Both the position numbers and the translations under genes were made by a program. A stretch of DNA of 64,000 nt from a virus (lineage: Duplodnaviria > Caudoviricetes), in the IMG/VR virus record IMGVR_UViG_3300032303_000488, positions 18,994-82,993 of that record; one strand, 5' to 3'. Of this stretch, positions 1 to 64,000 are shown piece after piece. Position 1 is the first letter of the stretch. Each line of letters begins with the position of its first letter. The notes under the pieces were generated by a model. It was not told the DNA's origin and ran no database searches. It saw only the letters and a list, made by a program, of their open reading frames with translations.

Positions 1-149
1 TACAATCTTAATACATGAATACATGCATCATCATAGTTCTCATCTTCTTCTGCGGTTGTAGGTATACCGTCATGGGTAGAACAAACAGCAGGACCAACCC
101 ATCCTTGTGTCAAACCATGTTGTAGCCATTCGTCAAAAGTCATTGACAT
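1..149 (-). CDS. Small hypothetical protein, runs off the window edge (MSMTFDEWLQHGLTQGWVGPAVCSTHDG...)
   Basis: Manual translation; ATG at 149 follows a GAAAGGGG SD-like sequence and a consensus promoter. Confidence 0.7.
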   Translation of the reverse strand, partial: MSMTFDEWLQHGLTQGWVGPAVCSTHDGIPTTAEEDENYDDACIHVLRL

Positions 150-153
150 AGAA

Positions 154-200
154 AAACCCCTTTCAGGTCTATATCTATTATAGGGCACCGAAAGGGGTTT
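154..200 (-). terminator. Intrinsic terminator overlapping the promoter
   Basis: 11-bp inverted repeat aaacccctttc (154-164) / gaaaggggttt (190-200), T-rich 3' end on the minus strand, just after the stop of 207..443. Confidence 0.55.
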
Positions 201-205
201 GTCAA
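177..205 (-). promoter_or_regulatory. Consensus housekeeping-sigma promoter TTGACA-17-TATAAT
   Basis: Minus strand reads TTGACA aacccctttcggtgccc TATAAT. Confidence 0.85.
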
Positions 206-206
206 G

Positions 207-443
207 TTATTTTTTTGCTGGAATGTTATCAACAAATGCTGCATTAATCTCGTCTTGAGTTAGTTTACCATCGTTTAGGTATCCACGAGACAAGTCTTCA
301 ATTACATTTGCAATTCCCATAAATCCTGCTAGGATAGCAGTCTGGACTACATTGATTCCAATTACTGCACCTGCACCAATAGTAGCCAAAGCGGTTACCA
401 AAAACAGAGCAAGCATACGCTTTGCAATCTTTAAAATATTCAT
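207..443 (-). CDS. Small membrane protein with two hydrophobic segments (holin-like size)
   Basis: 78 aa, two hydrophobic stretches; TAATG-coupled to the upstream gene. Confidence 0.7.
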   Translation of the reverse strand: MNILKIAKRMLALFLVTALATIGAGAVIGINVVQTAILAGFMGIANVIEDLSRGYLNDGKLTQDEINAAFVDNIPAKK

Positions 444-622
444 TAGTCTTCCTCCTTATCTTTTGGGTTTCTAAGTGGATAAGTAATCATCCATAGAACT
501 GATGTTCCAATGATTGCATATCCTACAACTGTTTTTGCTGAACCCTCAAGGACCAGCCATGCTACAAACATACCAAGGAGTGTCCAGGCTTGACCGAGTA
601 GGTCATTTAAAAATTTCTTCAT
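443..622 (-). CDS. 59-aa two-TM membrane protein (MKKFLNDLLGQAWTLLGMFVAWLVLEGS...), missing from the ORF track
   Basis: Manual translation; TAATG overlaps at both ends. Confidence 0.75.
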   Translation of the reverse strand: MKKFLNDLLGQAWTLLGMFVAWLVLEGSAKTVVGYAIIGTSVLWMITYPLRNPKDKEED

Positions 623-2553
623 TAATCTTTCCTCCTTCTATATCCTGTGCTAGATGAACCACCTGTTGGTGCTCCACCTGCTGATGGTGATGCCATGAGT
701 GCAGCACCTGTTGCTGCGTTTACTGCTGCTCCAACAGCAACAACTGCTGTTACAACAATCTTTTTTGATTCTTCTCTTACTTTAGTAGACATGTCGGAAC
801 CAACGTTTCCCATAAAGTTAAGTGCACCAACCAAAGCCGCTGCTCCTGGAATGGCTGCAAGTTCTTCAGAAATTACAATGTCATCTGCTTGGGCTGCTAC
901 AAATAGAGCGTCAAGAGCCTGTTCATATTCTGGTGAACCTTGTTCTGAATTATTTAGGATTTCATTTGCTACAGATATAAGTTCTGCTACTTGTTCATTT
1001 GAAAGTGATTGTGGGTCTACCGTGGCTATATCTACTGGTAACTCAGGTTGATTGGGTTCGGGGGACACTGGCGGCTCTGGTTCTGGTAGCGGTTCTGGGA
1101 TAACTTCTGTTGGCTTTTCAACAGGTTCCTCGGTCTCCGTAGGTGTAGGTGCTGGCTCTTCATAAGGTGGAATGGAGTCAAGTTCTTGTTGGACTGCAAC
1201 TAATTCCTCCTGTTTTGTTATTACATCCTGAGATGCTACTTCAATTATACCTGCTTTTTCTGTTTGAACTAACAAAGATGACTCATAATCCTGTTGTAGT
1301 TTGTCCCTATCTGATATTGCAAATAACAAAGTAGATTCTTTTTCATTCAAATCAATTTGTGCTATGCCTATTGGTATTAGCAATGCAGAGTCATTAATTA
1401 GTAGTGCATTGGCATCCTCATCTGGAATAACTATAACTATATCTTCTTTTCTGTATCTAGTTTCTTCTCTAAATAAATTAATCTCATCATATACAGTTAC
1501 TTCATCGTAAATTGTTTCCTCTGTGTACACAGTTACTTCTTGATATTTTACAACTGGCTGATAGATTGTTTCTGTTACTGTTGTTTCTCCAAACCAAGAT
1601 GCAGGAATAATTTGCATGTTGTCACCAGAAATTTTTGAATAAAGTTGTACCCATGCTCCACCACCATTTTCATAATAGTATAAAGTGGTAGGATAAAATA
1701 TACCTGCTCTAATCCATACTTCTTGGGAGGTGCTACCACCTCCGCCTTTGTCACGCCAATCATTGATAAGGCTCATACCAGCAATAGTTAATTTAACTCC
1801 GTCATCTCCTGGAGCATAAAAACTATACCATCCATCTTGTGGAACCATTAGGTTTCCTTCAAACTTAACTAAAACGTCTTCAGTCTTTCCAGAATTTAAA
1901 ACTTGACCTCCACCCCATTGGAAATCAATGTTTGGTACGTTTTGAGTGGCTAACGGTGTCTCTTGTTCTGTTGGAAGTGGTGGGGCATTATTGTATCCCT
2001 GTCTATTATATGAAATTGCTGTAAGTCCACCTGGAACTACCCTTGTAATTTCAATTGGCTCATAGTCCAAATAAGATTGTAGTTCTGTATGAGGCACAAG
2101 GATTGTTCTTGGAACTAACTCTGTTCTTGGAACTAATTCTGTATAAGGAACTTGAACTGTATAGGGAACATCAATAGTCTGTGTAATTTCTTTGTCAGGT
2201 CTCACCCAGTTAGGGTCTAAAATTAATTTTGTATTGTAATCATCTTTAGCCAAATCTAAACTTGCTTGTGCTTTAGTTACAAGTAGTTCTTTATTCTGTA
2301 CATCTATAATTTTGTTATCTAGGATTGTTTTATTTGACTCTACTATAGCATCAATGGTAGATTTATTATCTAATGCTACTTGATATGTTTCTTGAGCAAG
2401 AGTTAGTTTACTTTGAGCAGCATCAACTTTGCCTTGGGCTTCTGCAACTACTGCATCATACTCAGCCTTTGTTTCCGCAGAGGCTGTTGATGGAAAAAAT
2501 AGACAGGAAAAGGCTAATAGTATTGCTAATAAAAATCTTTGGGGTTTATTAAT
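622..2553 (-). CDS. Membrane-anchored PA14-domain surface protein; probable ATT start at 2553 (643 aa)
   Basis: PA14 motifs (NIDFQWGGG, GWYSFY..GDDGVKL, YYENGGGAWVQL); frame stays open 100 codons upstream of the TTG at 2253; AAGGAG 7 nt before ATT; signal-peptide-like N-terminus; C-terminal hydrophobic segment. Confidence 0.8.
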   Translation of the reverse strand: MNKPQRFLLAILLAFSCLFFPSTASAETKAEYDAVVAEAQGKVDAAQSKLTLAQETYQVALDNKSTIDAIVESNKTILDNKIIDVQNKELLVTKAQASLDLAKDDYNTKLILDPNWVRPDKEITQTIDVPYTVQVPYTELVPRTELVPRTILVPHTELQSYLDYEPIEITRVVPGGLTAISYNRQGYNNAPPLPTEQETPLATQNVPNIDFQWGGGQVLNSGKTEDVLVKFEGNLMVPQDGWYSFYAPGDDGVKLTIAGMSLINDWRDKGGGGSTSQEVWIRAGIFYPTTLYYYENGGGAWVQLYSKISGDNMQIIPASWFGETTVTETIYQPVVKYQEVTVYTEETIYDEVTVYDEINLFREETRYRKEDIVIVIPDEDANALLINDSALLIPIGIAQIDLNEKESTLLFAISDRDKLQQDYESSLLVQTEKAGIIEVASQDVITKQEELVAVQQELDSIPPYEEPAPTPTETEEPVEKPTEVIPEPLPEPEPPVSPEPNQPELPVDIATVDPQSLSNEQVAELISVANEILNNSEQGSPEYEQALDALFVAAQADDIVISEELAAIPGAAALVGALNFMGNVGSDMSTKVREESKKIVVTAVVAVGAAVNAATGAALMASPSAGGAPTGGSSSTGYRRRKD

Positions 2554-2597
2554 TTGTAGTCTCCTTGTTGGGAATGTCCAACAAAACTATTATACCA

Positions 2598-4394
2598 CTA
2601 CATTATATTTATGTTGAACTGTTTAAAGTATGCATCTAAATCTTTTTGCTCTGGTTTATTGCGTTGAATGATATTACGCTTGTCAAACTCATGCATTTCT
2701 TCCGTTGGTTTTCTGTCACGAAATGTATGTATTTCTACCATCTGATTCATGTCTTTTACAGTGTGAGAGATAGCACCAAAGATAGCACCGCATACAGCAT
2801 CTGCAAGGTCCTTAGAGGACTTTCTAGGGTGGTCTACACGATTACCCCTCATAATTTTTAATTCTGTTAATTCTTCAAACAGCAACTCTATGGCTGGCAT
2901 AGCAAGTCTTTCTTCGTAAACAAGCATAGCCATATCTTCATAGTGTTTCTTGGCAACAGATACAGTCTCAGTCTTTATACCAACAGACTTTAATTCATTT
3001 TGAATATCAAACGATTGCCAACGGTCAAACGATACCATACCCAAATCAAATCCAAGTCTCCTCAAGTTCTGAATCCATTGCTTTACCTCTGAAAGGTTAA
3101 CAGGACCTTCAACTTTTGGTTCCCAATATACTACTGCATCTACCACTACGATAGGCATTACTTGGGCATAATCTTTAACTACCTGCACATTTACCCATTT
3201 TTCAACGTGAGCAATAGCCACAGCACATTTGTCGTGGCGTTGTGCAAGGTCAGCATGGACAAAGTATTTTTTATCTGGGTCTGGTTTAAATGATTCCATA
3301 AAACTTTTATTAGAATCAATGGGGTTTACAATTGTCATACAAGCACGAACTTTTTCCTGTTGCTTAAAGAAAGCGTCAGAGGCGTAGGTGGGGACACAAG
3401 CAAAACGCATCATGGCATCTCCCAGGTCTGTATAGAACGCTAATTTAAAGTCATCAATTTTACGAGTAGGATTTACCACCCATGTAGGTCTTTTAATAGC
3501 AAACATTCCTGGAAATTTATAAGACAAAATATTATCTTCTTCCCATTCAATATCTAGGCTATTTCCATCTGCATCTTCTGGCAAATCTGCATTCATAATA
3601 AACTTATGTTTCTTTATTACCACTTCTTTTTCGGCAATAACTGAGTCATACCTTTGGCTAATAAAGTCCCCAGGATAGCGTGGAAAAGAAAGTAGTGCTA
3701 CTTTGCCTAAGTCTGGAAAACGACTGTCTACGGAGGCACGGAAGGCTTTATAGATGTTGTCTGCGGTTTTTCCTTGGTCATTTCCAGTTCCAACTTCATT
3801 AGCAAAACCAGAAATTTCATCCAGCACTGCCAGAATAAGGTTTAGACCTTCGTGAGACTCTCGTTCTGAGTGTCCAGAATAAACAGTAATAGCATTATTA
3901 AACTCAATGCTATCTACTTTTGCATAATATTTACCAGCGAACCAAGGTGAACGCTCAATTTTGTTTTTGAAGCCCTTAAAAAAAACGTTCTTAGCCTGTT
4001 GTGCGTTAACAGCAATGTTGATAATATCAATAGCGTCTCCAGTAGGTTTGCCAAAATAACGAGCAGGGTCTTTAAGACAAAGTAATTTATAAACAATATA
4101 GGAACAAGCGACAGTAGAAACAAAATCCTTACCAGAACCTTTTCCAAGTTGTAGGATTACTTCATTCTTTGTATATTTTTTGTAGTATCTACGACCTTCT
4201 TCTTCACCAAGTAGTTCTATAACCTCTTCTAGTCTATAAATTTGTGACATTGCTTCAACAATGTCATACTGAATTTGAGATAGTGGTGGCTGTTGCAAAT
4301 AGTCTTCACCTTCAACAAATGTTTTAACATCTACTGGTATCTCTGCAAAAACGTTGCTCTTTAGTACCTCAAGAAAATCATTGAACATTGACAA
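2598..4394 (-). CDS. terL: Terminase large subunit
   Basis: Walker A QLGKGSGKD, Walker B LAVLDE, nuclease motifs HADLA, FDRWQS, KDLADA. Confidence 0.92.
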   Translation of the reverse strand: MSMFNDFLEVLKSNVFAEIPVDVKTFVEGEDYLQQPPLSQIQYDIVEAMSQIYRLEEVIELLGEEEGRRYYKKYTKNEVILQLGKGSGKDFVSTVACSYIVYKLLCLKDPARYFGKPTGDAIDIINIAVNAQQAKNVFFKGFKNKIERSPWFAGKYYAKVDSIEFNNAITVYSGHSERESHEGLNLILAVLDEISGFANEVGTGNDQGKTADNIYKAFRASVDSRFPDLGKVALLSFPRYPGDFISQRYDSVIAEKEVVIKKHKFIMNADLPEDADGNSLDIEWEEDNILSYKFPGMFAIKRPTWVVNPTRKIDDFKLAFYTDLGDAMMRFACVPTYASDAFFKQQEKVRACMTIVNPIDSNKSFMESFKPDPDKKYFVHADLAQRHDKCAVAIAHVEKWVNVQVVKDYAQVMPIVVVDAVVYWEPKVEGPVNLSEVKQWIQNLRRLGFDLGMVSFDRWQSFDIQNELKSVGIKTETVSVAKKHYEDMAMLVYEERLAMPAIELLFEELTELKIMRGNRVDHPRKSSKDLADAVCGAIFGAISHTVKDMNQMVEIHTFRDRKPTEEMHEFDKRNIIQRNKPEQKDLDAYFKQFNINIM

Positions 4395-5188: not shown

Positions 5189-5340
5189 CTTTTTGACTTC
5201 CTTAACTTAAACTTGGCTAAATAAACATAGACTGTTTCTACGCTAGTGCCACACTCTAAAGCAATTTGCTCTGGAGTTTTTTTATCTACATGGAATCTTT
5301 TGCGAAGCCACGCCTCATTGGTATAAAATTTATTAGCCAT
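5185..5340 (-). CDS. Small HTH DNA-binding protein
   Basis: MANKFY...TPEQIALECGTSVETVYVYLAKF; start at 5340 overlaps the upstream stop. Confidence 0.7.
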   Translation of the reverse strand: MANKFYTNEAWLRKRFHVDKKTPEQIALECGTSVETVYVYLAKFKLRKSKR

Positions 5341-24050: not shown

Positions 24051-24631
24051 ATGTCAAAGTTAGTACCCCCACGTTTTTGAACACTCCAAGTAAAATCTGT
24101 AATATACATTTCTAAAACTTCTTGATATTGAGCCAAATGCGTATAAGCAGCATCATTTCTGCCAAACTCATTAAACTTATCGTACGCTAAGAAAACATAA
24201 AAAGTTCCATAATGTTTTTCATACCAATCCAACAGTTCAACACCGCCAGCACCCCCATCTACCGTGTTTTTATCTACAAGGCTGGTTGGAAGACCTGTTG
24301 TTGTATCTATATTTGGGTCAGCACTGAATGACCTTGATGGCAACATATCCCAAGATACTGACAATGTTCTTTTGTCTGCAATCCAGTAAGAACGCATACG
24401 ACCATTAACCATACGTTGACGATTTTCAATTCTTTGTACTCCAAAATCAAGGGAACTTCTGCTGTGGTCTGACAAAACTATAAAACTACCAGTGTCATTT
24501 AAAGAATTATTAATTTCATATCCAGAAGGAACATATGAGCCACCAGATAGTTCTCCTGCGTCCTCGGAAAAAAGAATAGCCTGTGGTCTAGCATACTGCT
24601 TTCTAGCATTCATGTATGTTGAATTGGTCAT
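24017..24631 (-). CDS. Distal tail (Dit-like) protein
   Basis: Directly after the TMP; beta-rich, 204 aa. Confidence 0.6.
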   Translation of the reverse strand: MTNSTYMNARKQYARPQAILFSEDAGELSGGSYVPSGYEINNSLNDTGSFIVLSDHSRSSLDFGVQRIENRQRMVNGRMRSYWIADKRTLSVSWDMLPSRSFSADPNIDTTTGLPTSLVDKNTVDGGAGGVELLDWYEKHYGTFYVFLAYDKFNEFGRNDAAYTHLAQYQEVLEMYITDFTWSVQKRGGTNFDMWNISMTLEEA

Positions 24632-60712: not shown

Positions 60713-60942
60713 AATATAAATAATTATACACTATCTTTTGAGTGTTTCGAGTTTTTTGAAACGGTAAAAATATGAGACACCAAACCCACACAAATGCCAG
60801 TATGCAACAAAGTTGCCAGATAGGTCAAATAGGGGTTTAAATGCCCCATAGAGCGATTAGAACCTATGCTTCCTAACACAGATACCCCCAAAATATGTTA
60901 TACTTATTTTCTAACGAAAATACTACCGAAAGAGAGAGACTT

Positions 60943-61125
60943 ATGGAAGACAAAGTTCCGTACATCAAACATTATGAATCAAAAGAATATCTTGAAGCAT
61001 GCATAGCAGCCAAGATGACATCAAAGGATATAGCCAATCAGAGTAAAGTGTCGTATAAACTTGTTAACTGGTGGCTGATAAAGCATGGATTGCTTCGCAA
61101 TACCCCAGAAATTAGGTTACCATAA
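60943..61125 (+). CDS. Small HTH DNA-binding protein
   Basis: MEDKVPY...TSKDIANQSKVSYKLVNWWLIKHGL; start inferred from a GAGAGAG SD-like run. Confidence 0.65.
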   Translation: MEDKVPYIKHYESKEYLEACIAAKMTSKDIANQSKVSYKLVNWWLIKHGLLRNTPEIRLP

Positions 61126-61349
61126 TGGAAATCGTTATCATATCGTTATCTATATTAATATTTATAGGCATATTTGCTTATCTACATCACCAAATCAAAT
61201 TCAGAGACACAGAAAACAAAATACATCACTGCAAAGTACCATATGTACAATACTTCCATCCAAAACAAGATTGGCAATGCAACAAATGCAAAGCATACTG
61301 GTATGTTAAACATGACAGTTACGGTTCATACTTTATCAAAAGGCAGTAA
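61125..61349 (+). CDS. Small membrane-anchored zinc-ribbon protein
   Basis: N-terminal TM, HHC...CNKC; TAATG coupling. Confidence 0.65.
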   Translation: MEIVIISLSILIFIGIFAYLHHQIKFRDTENKIHHCKVPYVQYFHPKQDWQCNKCKAYWYVKHDSYGSYFIKRQ

Positions 61350-61516
61350 TCTGCATACCCTCGAAATCTGAAAAAAAATATTTTTGTATTGTAACAAATC
61401 TGAATATTTTGATTATGTGTATGATACAGGACTACACACTACTAAAATAGAAGTAATAGTGAGCACACTATACGCCCTATGTTTATAACGAATTGATAAC
61501 GATAGGAGTGTTGCTA

Positions 61517-61545
61517 TTGACAAACTAAATAAACTATGATAGTAT
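61517..61545 (+). promoter_or_regulatory. Sigma70-type promoter TTGACA-17-TAGTAT
   Basis: Direct sequence match. Confidence 0.75.
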
Positions 61546-61575
61546 GTAAACATAATAAAGAATAGGAAATAACAA

Positions 61576-61716
61576 ATGCACGGAAACTCAAAGACAGCCC
61601 TACTAATGCGTATAGTAGACTTACAGAAATTTTTATCTACTACTACTGATGAAGGTATGCGTAATCACTACCTTGCTGAGATAAACAAACTAATGAAGCG
61701 TGTTTATAACAAATAG
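61576..61716 (+). CDS. 46-aa early microprotein
   Basis: Manual translation MHGNSKTALLMRIVDLQ...; TAGGA SD. Confidence 0.65.
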   Translation: MHGNSKTALLMRIVDLQKFLSTTTDEGMRNHYLAEINKLMKRVYNK

Positions 61717-61802
61717 ATAACAACCTGCGACACACCCCCTACACACCTAGTAAATGTCAGTGGTAGGGTGTAGTGTATAACTATAACAAGAAAGGTTATC
61801 AA

Positions 61803-61958
61803 ATGTCAGAAATCAAAACTCTATGGGCTGTTGGATTTGCGTATGAAGAAGCAGTAGCAGTATTTACATCACAAGAAAAAGGTTTAGCATTCAAGGAAAA
61901 GTTTGACCTTGACTACTGCGAACCAATTGAACTTGACCCTGAAGAATACCCTGCCTAA
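61803..61958 (+). CDS. 51-aa early microprotein
   Basis: GAAAGG SD; downstream of motif copy 1. Confidence 0.7.
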   Translation: MSEIKTLWAVGFAYEEAVAVFTSQEKGLAFKEKFDLDYCEPIELDPEEYPA

Positions 61959-62017
61959 TGGAAGCGTTGCTAATCGTAATCATCTTGCTACCTCTGATTT
62001 ATCTACTAGGAGAATAA
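61958..62017 (+). CDS. 19-aa hydrophobic peptide MEALLIVIILLPLIYLLGE
   Basis: TAATG coupling at both ends. Confidence 0.5.
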   Translation: MEALLIVIILLPLIYLLGE

Positions 62018-62136
62018 TGAAGAACTTACCTAAACAAATCTTCGCCTACGCTTGTAAGCGTTGCTCATCTATCTCATCAATACAGTTGAAGAAGAAGAGT
62101 ATAACAGTTTATAGTTGTAGGTGTGTCGCTACTTGA
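62017..62136 (+). CDS. 39-aa Cys-containing microprotein
   Basis: CKRC..CRC; AGGAG SD; TAATG coupling. Confidence 0.55.
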   Translation: MKNLPKQIFAYACKRCSSISSIQLKKKSITVYSCRCVAT

Positions 62137-62163
62137 CATACCGCCCCGAAAGGGGTCGGCACC

Positions 62164-62172
62164 TGTGGATAA
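62164..62172 (-). promoter_or_regulatory. Perfect DnaA box TTATCCACA
   Basis: Plus strand reads TGTGGATAA. Confidence 0.55.
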
Positions 62173-62271
62173 CTTTTTACTTAGTTAAGTTTAGGTAAAC
62201 AATTCCCCGAAATGTCTAAAATGCGGCGTGTCGCACCCCTAAATGTCAGTGGTCTAATGTATAGTAATACT

Positions 62272-62385
62272 ATGAAAGATAAAAAGACAGAACTAACAGT
62301 AATGCTTGCTAAGTATGCCAGAGCAGGTATCCCCCTAACTACTGCTGAAAAGAACCTTGTAAAGTATCTACTAAGCAAAAAATAA
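62272..62385 (+). CDS. 37-aa early microprotein, leaderless
   Basis: ATG 6 nt after TATAGT; MKDKKTELTVMLAKY... Confidence 0.65.
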   Translation: MKDKKTELTVMLAKYARAGIPLTTAEKNLVKYLLSKK

Positions 62386-62479
62386 CAGTTCGATAACGAA
62401 ATAGCAACACACCCATAAACATCCCCAAAATGTCAGTGGTCGCTGGTAGTGTAATAGTAGTCAAAGAAAGGACTAACAA

Positions 62480-62599
62480 ATGACAACCTATGAAATCAAA
62501 GCAAGATACAAAGAACTAATGCGAATTGCTGAAAGTGATGTAATGACCGCAGGTGAGTTTGATGAACTAATGGCAATGTTTAGCAAACTAACCAAATAA
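62480..62599 (+). CDS. 39-aa early microprotein
   Basis: GAAAGGA SD; MTTYEIKARYKELMR... Confidence 0.65.
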   Translation: MTTYEIKARYKELMRIAESDVMTAGEFDELMAMFSKLTK

Positions 62600-62725
62600 T
62601 AATCTTGGTTATTTAGTGAGCCTGATTAGGTGAGCCTAGAAATAGCAAATAAACTAATCAGCAAATAAATAAATAATCGCAACAAAACTAAATAAATAAT
62701 AATCTATAAAAGAAATGAGAAATAA

Positions 62726-62863
62726 ATGTCACATAACGAAAGCAAGAAATACACGCTAGTAGAATACACATTCGCAGGTAAGCGTGGCGTGTCAGCAATA
62801 CACCATCTAGACCTAGTCAAGTTCTTAATAGAACACCCTGACGCTGTAATACTAAAAAAGTAA
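62726..62863 (+). CDS. 45-aa early microprotein
   Basis: MSHNESKKYTLVEYTF...; A-rich leader. Confidence 0.6.
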   Translation: MSHNESKKYTLVEYTFAGKRGVSAIHHLDLVKFLIEHPDAVILKK

Positions 62864-62912
62864 CAGTTAGGTAACAATCTGCGACACGCCCGAGTGCGTG
62901 GTCGGCACATCC

Positions 62913-62924
62913 GAACAAATGTTC
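62913..62924. promoter_or_regulatory. LexA (Cheo-type) box-like palindrome GAAC-N4-GTTC
   Basis: ccGAACaaatGTTCaa, upstream of motif copy 4. Confidence 0.45.
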
Positions 62925-62982
62925 AATTACGTTAAGGTGTGTCGTTCCCCCAAATGTCAGAGGTATGGTGTAGTTTATAACT

Positions 62983-63129
62983 ATGAATACTAAACCTTGT
63001 TTCCTTTGCTCAGTCGCTACCCCTGCTCACCTTGTTGTTATCTCTAATGGCAATGTGTTCCGTTCCTGTGAGGCGTGTCTTGCTTCATACCCTGACCACC
63101 TTGTTGAGACAACTGTTGCTCTACCCTAA
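62983..63129 (+). CDS. 48-aa zinc-finger microprotein, leaderless
   Basis: CFLC...CEAC; ATG 6 nt after TAGTTT. Confidence 0.65.
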   Translation: MNTKPCFLCSVATPAHLVVISNGNVFRSCEACLASYPDHLVETTVALP

Positions 63130-63143
63130 CTAAAGGTTCCACT

Positions 63144-63251
63144 ATGGAAAACTGCTGCTACTGCTCCAAGCCATCTCCAGAAGTAAAACTCTGGGGGCAG
63201 GTGTGCCACTCTTGTGAGGACACGCTAGACTGGGGAGATGATGAAGAGTAA
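63144..63251 (+). CDS. 35-aa zinc-finger microprotein
   Basis: CCYC...CHSC; AAAGGT SD. Confidence 0.6.
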   Translation: MENCCYCSKPSPEVKLWGQVCHSCEDTLDWGDDEE

Positions 63252-63406
63252 ACTTGACAAACACCCGAAAGGGTGCCGACCCACGACACGCCCGAAAAAC
63301 ATTTATAACGGTATTGTTATAATCCCCAAAATAGTGCCTTATTTGCCTTCCAATGTCAGTGGTCAAGTGTATAATAAAGGTATAAGAAAAGAAATGAGAA
63401 ATAAAA

Positions 63407-63568
63407 ATGGTTGGAATTATCTGTGTCTATGACGGAACTAAGACTTGGGCTTACATCTGCCCTACTTGTAAAGAGTATGATGGTCTAATGGAAATCAGCA
63501 AGGCAGTAAAAGAGTATGACTTTATTGCTGAAATGTATGCTGATGAAATTGCGTTTATGCCTAGTTAG
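63407..63568 (+). CDS. 53-aa microprotein with CxxC
   Basis: Manual translation; downstream of motif copy 5. Confidence 0.65.
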   Translation: MVGIICVYDGTKTWAYICPTCKEYDGLMEISKAVKEYDFIAEMYADEIAFMPS

Positions 63569-63613
63569 GCTAAATGTCAGTGGTTGCCTGTATAATAAAA
63601 CTAATCAAAAGAA

Positions 63614-63796
63614 ATGGAAAATAAAATGTTAGATAAAGACTTTGATACTTTTAGACTAATGAACGAACTAAGACTAAAAGATGGCATTGCTGGTGAAAAC
63701 CCTGTTGCCTATGCTTATGGTCTATGTTTTGGACAACTAACTCAAAAGCAAAAAGCGTTGATTGCTCAAATTGTAAATAAGATGGAGAATAAATAA
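63614..63796 (+). CDS. Small early protein
   Basis: Downstream of motif copy 6; the start could also be the second Met. Confidence 0.7.
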   Translation: MENKMLDKDFDTFRLMNELRLKDGIAGENPVAYAYGLCFGQLTQKQKALIAQIVNKMENK

Positions 63797-63891
63797 TGGA
63801 AGACTGGAAACTCGCATTAGCAGAAATCCAAAAGTCAATGAGAGAAAACTTTATTTCTCAAATCAAAACTAATGAAAAGGAAAATAAATAA
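63796..63891 (+). CDS. 31-aa microprotein
   Basis: TAATG coupling, GGAG SD; MEDWKLALAEIQK... Confidence 0.55.
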   Translation: MEDWKLALAEIQKSMRENFISQIKTNEKENK

Positions 63892-64000
63892 ATGGAGAAA
63901 GCATTCTTACAAATTGGTCTAGTAATGTCAGCGTTAGTTGCTGGTATCTTTTCGTTCTTCATCAGTGATACCCTAAACTATTTAGGTTTATTTACTGATA
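63892..64000 (+). CDS. Small membrane protein, truncated by the window end
   Basis: MEKAFLQIGLVMSALVAGIFSFF... hydrophobic segment. Confidence 0.55.
   Translation, partial: MEKAFLQIGLVMSALVAGIFSFFISDTLNYLGLFTD

Follow-up and report, generated by a model that had tools for sequence, protein, structure and literature searches.

Promoters of PafBC-type geometry, with WhiA-, LexA- and DnaA-type sites upstream, in the early region of a freshwater actinophage

The early region and its promoter motif

The stretch analysed here, called the window throughout, is the final 64 kb (64,000 nucleotides) of the 82,993-bp single-contig virus record IMGVR_UViG_3300032303_000488, and its end is the end of the contig. 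The record has a GC content of 37%, a linear topology and a completeness of 82% (CheckV). Its minus strand encodes the portal, protease and capsid proteins, a very long tape-measure gene, a DnaE-type polymerase, a primase and a helicase. A plus-strand block of tiny open reading frames (ORFs) begins at ~60,900 of the window, reaches the contig end and resumes at genome positions 1-3,490. This early block carries a recurrent promoter motif, TGTCAG-N10-TAnnnT, whose geometry resembles that of promoters activated by PafBC, and the likely relation between the two is the subject of this report. In actinobacteria, the DNA-damage response has PafBC as its master activator, and more and more links are being drawn between WYL-domain regulators and anti-phage defence.

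Within the window, the block holds an array of 12 micro-ORFs of 31-60 aa (61576..64000, plus strand) that runs to the contig end. The first six are located at 61576-61716, 61803-61958, 62017-62136, 62272-62385, 62480-62599 and 62726-62863, and the other six at 62983-63129, 63144-63251, 63407-63568, 63614-63796, 63796-63891 and from 63892 to the contig end. Eight of the eleven proteins compared (all but that of 61803-61958) are 50-97% identical in related contigs, where a ninth finds a weak match (36-43%); searches of the early ORFs against Pfam, PHROG and NCBIfam assigned no function. The first micro-ORF is preceded by a sigma-A type promoter, TTGACA-17-TAGTAT at 61517..61545 (+), which is the best sigma-70-like match in the region (10/12) and the sole strong one, sigma-70-type matches being no more frequent there than in shuffles.

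All six promoters in the window that follow the recurrent motif are on the plus strand and have PafBC-type geometry, viz., P1 (61755..61776, with TAGTGT as -10 and no -35), P2 (62244..62265, TATAGT), P3 (62431..62452, TAGTGT), P4 (62955..62976, TAGTTT), P5 (63354..63375, TATAAT) and P6 (63575..63596, TATAAT). Two further plus-strand copies of the same form are located beyond the contig end, at genome positions 71 and ~3150. The conserved sequence aATGTCAGtgg spans about -30 to -20 and the -10 element is TAnnnT. Expected counts were obtained from 100 shuffles of the window; seven matches to TGTCAG-N10-TAnnnT are found against 0.82 expected, and none of the shuffles reaches seven. The motif is confined to the plus strand of the early block except for the seventh match (24342-24363, minus strand), which is inside a coding region of the tail module and is probably due to chance (0.8 expected per window).

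None of the six has a -35 element at the canonical distance, the hexamers 17 nt above the -10 being tagtaa, ccctaa, cccaaa, ccccaa, cttcca and ggctaa, and a sigma-70 scan listed none of P1-P6. At P2, the ATG of a 37-aa ORF (62272), and at P4, that of a 48-aa Cys-rich ORF (62983), is positioned 6 nt past the -10, and the mRNAs of both promoters are therefore predicted to be leaderless. Among 602 distinct ATGTCAG contexts (120 sequences), 415 have TAnnnT at the exact offset of 17. ATGTCA as a -35 hexamer with a spacer of 16-17 nt was considered and rejected, given that TAnnnT at offset 17 is the conserved element and puts the start codons of two ORFs at the predicted +1. The leaderless gene of P4 and its neighbours encode CxxC-rich microproteins.

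The consensus of PafBC promoters is 22 nt long, tGTCgg(N10)tA(N3)T, and its 5' part at -23 to -28 is termed the '-26 element'; the GTC is invariant and a -35 is absent (PMC8635444). PafBC slots between the DNA of the promoter and sigma-A's domain 4, a mechanism named 'sigma adaptation', and only then does RNA polymerase with sigma-A read the motif (PMC8635444), activation being brought about by single-stranded DNA bound by the WYL domains (PMC11804915). The motif, also called RecA-NDp, extends to other actinobacteria, and recA is among the genes that carry it together with an SOS box (PMC8223512). As judged by sequence comparison, the phage promoter motif agrees base for base with this PafBC (RecA-NDp) geometry, and is the strongest putative link to DNA damage in the region. 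A sequence-only reading of the window made earlier had listed a "fixed-spacing promoter motif", which is indeed real and enriched, but had left it unidentified and missed the link to PafBC. All motifs in that list are present where they had been placed, and the repeated ones occur far above chance when the window is compared with its shuffles.

Regulator-type sites upstream of the promoters

The box CGACAC[AG]CC occurs six times in the window against 0.14 expected; the six copies are within 1.6 kb, and there are no others in the 83-kb genome. Three of them are CGACACGCC and three are CGACACACC. The CGACACACC at 61728..61736 (+) starts 26 bp before the A preceding the TGTCAG of P1, and two minus-strand boxes, at 62225..62233 (GGCGTGTCG on the plus strand) and 62936..62944 (GGTGTGTCG on the plus strand), start 18 bp before the equivalent A of P2 and P4, respectively. 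Plus-strand copies of CGACACGCC are located at 62882..62890, where all 9 of 9 bases equal the motif of Minch et al. as quoted in PMC13473873, and at 63284..63292, downstream of a TTGACA hexamer (63254), a GAAA hairpin (63262-63275) and an inverted GGTCGGCAC motif. The remaining copy, at 62120 (-), belongs to an inverted box pair, GGTGTGTCG and TGACATACC (62120..62142, both strands), which overlaps the stop codon of a micro-ORF and, from its sequence, may serve either as a double WhiA site or as the hairpin of a terminator. In related contigs, box starts are found 25-26 bp (plus strand) or 16-19 bp (minus strand) from the A preceding TGTCAG, the plus orientation at 25-26 bp being the modal arrangement, and 202 of 227 boxes are CGACACGCC followed by G or C.

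The motif of WhiA from chromatin immunoprecipitation sequencing (ChIP-seq) and IDAP-seq in M. tuberculosis is GACACGCC, and CGACACGCC(G) is the ChIP and IDAP motif of WhiA/WhiB2 in this organism (PMC13473873). The same source quotes CGACACGCCGn from an earlier data set and cGACACGc from an M. smegmatis one-hybrid study, and reports that WhiA also binds the recA promoter region in M. tuberculosis (PMC13473873). In Streptomyces, the GACAC motif is found upstream of the -35 on either strand and at variable spacing, and WhiA acts with WhiB, the latter being bound to sigma domain 4 (PMC10243135). The match of the CGACAC box to GACACGCC and CGACACGCCGn bears out its earlier assignment to WhiA; the box equals the extended WhiA motif and is a predicted site for host WhiA.

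Some of these elements can also be read at the level of RNA, with certain CGACAC boxes, the GGTCGGCAC motif and the GAAA hairpins acting as terminators or processing signals between micro-operons, an explanation that we regard as rather unlikely. It draws on the box at 62120, which together with TGACATACC makes a 9-bp stem that directly follows a stop codon and adjoins a GNRA (GAAA) hairpin (-22.4 kcal/mol, z -2.7), and on related contigs, in which boxes are accompanied by GC-rich hairpins showing compensatory changes. The hairpin in question (62143..62156, plus strand) is GC-rich with a GAAA loop, and its stem varies in sequence among relatives with pairing kept in several; it is possibly a terminator without a U tract. 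Against the RNA reading, the two remaining hairpin segments do not surpass shuffled sequences in folding, the hairpins have no following U tract, a search of the region against Rfam returned no family, and the boxes at fixed distances above the -26 element are not in hairpins. The GGTCGGCAC motif (motif X) has sequence matches at 62154..62162 (+), 62900-62908 (+) and 63273-63281 (-); RNA pairing between it and the box was rejected, as it is not kept in relatives with an inverted GGTCGGCAC.

A LexA-type SOS box, the palindrome CGAACAAATGTTCA, is present at 62912..62925, with an extended reading cCGAACAAATGTTCaa at 62911-62926. It fits the LexA consensus tCGAAC-N4-GNNCGa (PMC9380542) and is kept, as CGAACAnnTGTTCG, at the matching place in four relatives (L015, L021, L025 and L064) before a leaderless Cys-rich gene, so that the sequence evidence sides with the proposed assignment of the GAAC-N4-GTTC palindrome to LexA. 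A distance of ~42 bp separates this box from the TGTCAG of P4 downstream, and nothing recognizable as a sigma-A promoter spans the box; at host-like recA genes, described below, the LexA box is equally set apart from the promoter. In one related contig (L036), GAGCCTAG repeats flank a LexA-type box. A perfect DnaA box, TTATCCACA, is located at 62164..62172 (-); at the corresponding position, relatives carry either a single box or two with a 12-bp period. By count, neither single site is significant: CGAAC-N4-GTTC occurs once against 0.14 expected and TTATCCACA twice against 0.77, and 14 of 100 or 17 of 100 shuffles reach such single-site counts. Both TTATCCACA at 62164-62172 and CGAACAAATGTTC at 62912-62924 recur at matching positions in related contigs. 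Thus, the DnaA motif named by the sequence-only reading is present and recurs, often in tandem, in relatives, but its count in the window carries no significance.

The direct repeat RTAAC-N6-RTAAC occurs six times in the window against 0.87 expected. Four copies are on the plus strand of the early region, viz., R1 (61485..61500), 16 bp above the -35 hexamer of the sigma-A type promoter; R2 (61706..61721), 6 bp above a WhiA-type box, a spacing found also in L012, L015 and L021; R3 (62382..62397), which is followed by a box-like CAACACACC at 62405-62413; and R4, GTAACAGTTAGGTAAC (62860..62875). A fifth is at 61134 (-). These repeats had been ascribed to MtrA or GlnR, whose consensus is [GT]T[GA]ACC-N5-GT[GT]ACn or gTnAc-N6-GaAAc (PMC5650626). 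The 11-bp period agrees with it, but the half-sites ATAAC/GTAAC match only partly, and host-like genomes show no excess of the repeat (50 against 105 in a reversed control); the MtrA/GlnR assignment is unsupported. The order of repeat, AA[CT]CTG, box and promoter in two units is confirmed at 61706-61776 and 62860-62976, with the GGTCGGCAC motif, the palindrome and an inverted box intervening between box and promoter in the second. The spacer at 62600-62725 is AT-rich, with two GTGAGCCT repeats and many AAATAA repeats, and is followed by the 45-aa ORF at 62726, which is without a PafBC-type promoter of its own.

Related phages, host and small actinobacterial genomes

A scan of IMG/VR with the promoter motif gave 119 loci. 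One nucleotide-similarity network accounts for 85 of these; its 840 kb contain 653 promoter motifs, 249 boxes and 207 DnaA boxes. Most loci outside it have no more than one or two promoter motifs and resemble chance hits. The close relatives (L012, L015, L021, L025/L064, L036, L073 and L078) are 70-88% identical to parts of the genome, and the same motif classes are present in their early regions. In the related contigs, the box is enriched 7.9-fold, TTATCCACA 7.7-fold, the RTAAC repeat 6.7-fold and the GGTCGGCAC motif 8.9-fold within 150 bp upstream of PafBC-type promoters. A conserved module can be recognized, the first half of which has an inverted box, TTGACAtacc, often a GC hairpin, and GGTCGGCAC in either orientation, and the second half one or two DnaA boxes, an RTAAC repeat, a box and the promoter. 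The composite of a box followed by TTGACAtacc is kept in L012, L021, L025 and L064. As the motif-bearing contigs are one kin group, their agreement points to constraint and not to independent invention.

A CRP-like palindrome, TGTGA-N6-TCACA, is enriched 10-fold upstream of promoters in relatives and is absent from the present phage. In distant members of the group (L003, L007, L008, L010, L011, L018, L019, L121, L126, L127 and L130), this CRP/GlxR-like palindrome replaces the RTAAC repeat and often follows TTATCCACA, with the box and the PafBC-type promoter at their usual distance. L121, L122, L126, L127 and L130 are short low-GC contigs with the promoter module that are binned in metagenome-assembled genomes (MAGs) of Flavobacteriaceae, Gammaproteobacteria, Chitinophagales and Bacteroidia among the GTDB species genomes, and are probably mis-binned phage fragments. 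The five closest cultured relatives, of ~130 kb (Rhodococcus phages Trina, NiceHouse and Weasels2, and Streptomyces phages Circinus and Jada), have the PafBC pattern only at control level. Since these are without the array, it is a trait of the freshwater group and not of actinophages generally. When the region was compared by blastn with 50,697 records of cultured phages, no match was obtained.

The host can be approached through a 96-aa WhiB encoded by the phage (genome 16408-16698, minus strand, outside the window numbering). This protein has a Cys-X(n)-C-X2-C-X5-C pattern and GVWGG, and matches the WhiB families of Pfam (1.3e-11) and PHROG; in a tblastn search, all 302 of its matches come from phages that infect Mycobacterium, Streptomyces, Rhodococcus or comparable hosts. 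WhiB-like genes have been used as an actinophage marker, and 'Ca. Planktophila' phages in culture have a GC content slightly under that of their host (PMC10202952). Because it encodes WhiB, the phage has an actinobacterial host despite its low GC, as had been claimed; it is a freshwater actinophage whose host is placed at the level of actinobacterium. RmlB-like and Glf-like genes were dropped as host markers, being too divergent. The phage WhiB could act as a partner of host WhiA at the boxes, or else be a competitor of host WhiB; competition of TM4 WhiB with host WhiB has been reported (cited in PMC10202952). Past the early block comes a gene-free gap (genome 3480-4360, outside the window) that may be the replication origin. 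Besides a perfect TTGACA-17-TATAAT promoter and several more TTGACA hexamers, it contains an RTAAC repeat with an inverted GGTCGGCAC motif, as well as a pair of perfect DnaA boxes at a distance of 24 bp.

Scanning 185,579 species genomes for box-N16/17-ATGTCAG-N10-TAnnnT gave 12 matches against ~9 naively expected. Actinobacterial MAGs account for six, whose downstream neighbours are a UvrD-like helicase gene, a gene for an FtsK-like protein and small leaderless ORFs; five are low-GC phage-like fragments in unrelated MAGs, and one in Methylobacterium looks random. One of the matching MAGs, the 1.2-Mb 'Actinomycetota bacterium NASQAN2011_433_B_bin.6', led to a family of 31 genomes of 1.0-2.1 Mb, referred to here as host-like. 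WYL-domain ORFs of ~310-330 aa, mostly in adjacent pairs like pafBC, are present in 29 of the 31, and WhiA is present in all five genomes tested. Upstream of recA, 29 regions could be compared: a GACAC[AG]C-type box is present in 29 of 29, a GAAC-N4-GTTC box in 27, and a PafBC-type promoter in 19 by a strict and 28 by a relaxed definition, with the order WhiA box, LexA box, PafBC-type promoter in 24 of 29. Some of these recA loci have a GC content of 37-42%, and recA regions carry tcGAACAnnTGTTCga as the LexA-type box.

TGTCAG-N10-TAnnnT occurs 40 times in five host-like genomes against 11 for a reversed control. The intergenic copies are followed by recA, a dnaE-like gene and ruvA, and by genes for a PD-(D/E)XK nuclease, a DnaQ/DinG-like protein and small Cys-rich proteins. 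At many of these promoters the ATG is 6 nt past the -10, as at P2 and P4 of the phage. Small leaderless Cys-rich proteins (70-100 aa, CxxC...CxxC) behind PafBC-type promoters are seen in the host-like genomes L187, L190 and L196. The phage unit at 62882-62976, with its box, LexA box, inverted box, PafBC-type promoter and leaderless gene, is, in terms of sequence motifs, built like the host-like recA control region.

The phage packs these sites far more densely, with eight PafBC-type promoters in 6 kb against 6-10 per 1.3-Mb host-like genome, and six WhiA-type boxes in 1.6 kb against 4-10. Such extreme density would suit sites that are mainly decoys, by which replicating phage DNA soaks up PafBC, WhiA, LexA and DnaA, blunting the DNA-damage, defence, cell-division and replication programmes of the host, with microprotein expression being secondary. 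One study that ties pafBC to mycobacteriophage resistance, as cited in PMC12848934, agrees with this. We nevertheless consider it improbable that the sites serve chiefly in this way, since the -26 elements are at an exact distance from a -10 and a conserved ORF, twice leaderless, which promoters need and decoys do not. A decoy effect is compatible with expression driven by PafBC.

A proposed host-driven early programme and its closest counterparts

We propose, with a probability of roughly 0.7, that the early genes of this phage are driven by host PafBC and modulated through WhiA, LexA and DnaA sites, in an arrangement like that of host recA. What is observed are the motif identities, the geometry and its conservation, the recurrence of this grammar at DNA-repair genes of host-like genomes, and the occurrence there of whiA and pafBC-like genes. 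The block would open with one ordinary sigma-A promoter (61517-61545), after which come six short transcription units within the window and no fewer than two past the contig end. Each unit would be fired from the '-26 element' (aATGTCAGtgg) and the TAnnnT -10 without a -35. Early transcription would need active host PafBC and would start when single-stranded DNA is present, either from the infection itself or from DNA damage. Upstream, WhiA sites (CGACACGCC on either strand) together with a single LexA box and a single DnaA box would tune individual units, which is probable because the layout copies the host recA control region; likewise, the phage is probably switched on via the host's single-stranded DNA alarm because its early promoters look like host DNA-damage promoters. 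Binding, PafBC dependence, the source of the single-stranded DNA (infection or prior damage) and the physiological logic are predictions from these features.

The principal alternative source of activation is the phage itself: the -26 box could be read by a phage-encoded factor, either an appropriator like MotA/AsiA of T4 or a protein that mimics the DNA-binding domain of PafB. In that case the array would belong to a delayed-early or middle class, activated by a product of the first, sigma-A-driven genes, and its likeness to PafBC promoters would be mimicry or coincidence. The ordinary sigma-A promoter ahead of the array is in keeping with such a scheme, as are the derivation of the motif-sharing contigs from one related group, the completeness of the record at only 82%, and a small, highly conserved helix-turn-helix (HTH) protein at 60919..61125 (+). 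This protein, the first gene of the plus-strand block, is 53-88% identical in eight related contigs and is the best-conserved early gene. It belongs to no Pfam family; its AlphaFold model (mean pLDDT 82) has four helices, and a structure search with it returned generic Fis/GerE-like folds (E>1) and no significant match to PafB or sigma domain 4. It is a candidate binder of the RTAAC repeats or the GGTCGGCAC motif. Six-frame searches of the 83-kb record found no WYL domain, sigma-70 region 2, or tyrosine or serine integrase, the last in agreement with the absence of an integrase noted earlier; an HTH resembling sigma-70 region 4 is seen only below the cut-off (E 8e-4), in a 74-aa ORF of the replication module (5212-5289, minus strand). 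Moreover, the same box and spacing are found before DNA-repair genes in actinobacterial genomes and equal the published PafBC motif (PMC8635444). A phage-encoded reader of the box thus appears unlikely to us.

The sequence-only reading had instead combined generic promoters with gating by WhiA, MtrA/GlnR, DnaA and LexA, such that lysis is deferred according to the cell-cycle state. The motif identities of WhiA, LexA and DnaA hold, and the 11-bp period of the repeats suits an OmpR-family regulator. However, the promoters are not generic, having no -35 and a PafBC element, and the repeat is not enriched in host-like genomes (the 50 against 105 given above), which makes this version highly improbable. 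Of its panel for host DNA-damage and cell-cycle regulators, the WhiA, LexA and DnaA parts stand as motif identities, but MtrA/GlnR and deferment do not, and PafBC was missed; lytic deferment and 'host-takeover' roles of the microproteins are unsupported and speculative.

Several points weigh against the PafBC-driven programme proposed here. It is built on sequence, with a host placed only at the level of actinobacterium. The host-like genomes are a stand-in for the phage's host, being one family reached through one MAG match and having recA loci of 37-70% GC. The number of matches in the species genomes (12 against ~9) is uninformative, and it is their contexts that are informative. Genome-wide counts of CGACACRCC in the host-like genomes are not above the reversed control, so that there only position favours the box and nothing favours the RTAAC repeat. 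Motif sharing among the 85 contigs may reflect common descent and not independent recruitment. Repression of P4 by LexA is not obvious, as the box is upstream of the promoter without overlap. Some boxes are inverted repeats and could be terminator stems. Finally, a phage-encoded factor could be located in the missing part of the record, as the early block leaves the contig.

By extension, the odds seem slightly better than even that a large group of abundant freshwater actinophages (85 contigs, 653 promoters) runs its entire early programme on PafBC, with WhiA and host or phage WhiB as co-regulators. If this is true, the host's alarm for DNA damage or foreign DNA would be the 'go' signal of the phage, or would bring a quiescent carrier state to its end, and the phage would turn that alarm into its own ignition. 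These would be the first phage promoters dependent on a host WYL-domain activator; our literature search found no paper describing PafBC-class phage promoters. Such dependence would provide a mechanism for timing gene expression in phages of slow-growing, streamlined freshwater actinobacteria, would explain why these phages carry WhiB, and would offer hundreds of natural promoter variants for the study of sigma adaptation and of the interplay between WhiA and WhiB.

Among known systems, PafBC (RecA-NDp) promoters are the closest (PMC8635444, PMC11804915, PMC8223512), sharing the -26 element with its invariant GTC, the 10-nt spacing, TAnnnT and the lack of a -35, as well as an SOS box alongside, as at recA, and, in host-like genomes and the phage, leaderless starts 6 nt past the -10. 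Unlike these, the promoters described here are phage-borne, occur in eight copies within ~6 kb and precede early microprotein genes, and their PafBC dependence is putative. The WhiA/WhiB promoters, such as sepX of S. venezuelae (PMC10243135) and those of M. tuberculosis (PMC13473873), similarly have an extended WhiA motif upstream on either strand, but sepX has a -35 contacted by sigma-A domain 4 with WhiB, whereas in the phage the downstream promoter is of PafBC type and the phage has a WhiB of its own. In the middle promoters of T4 ('sigma appropriation'), a MotA box at -30, used with AsiA, likewise stands in for the -35, a short and fixed distance away from a normal -10. T4, however, supplies the factors, while none was found in the present 82%-complete record and the box is that of a host regulon. 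Sites for host regulators are also known from other phages, for example, CtrA sites in alphaproteobacterial phages and LexA and DnaA sites in temperate phages. These too tie phage expression to a regulator of host state, but they are mostly repressor or operator sites on ordinary promoters, whereas in the present phage the core promoter itself is of the host stress regulon type and several host-regulator sites are combined in the layout of a recA region.

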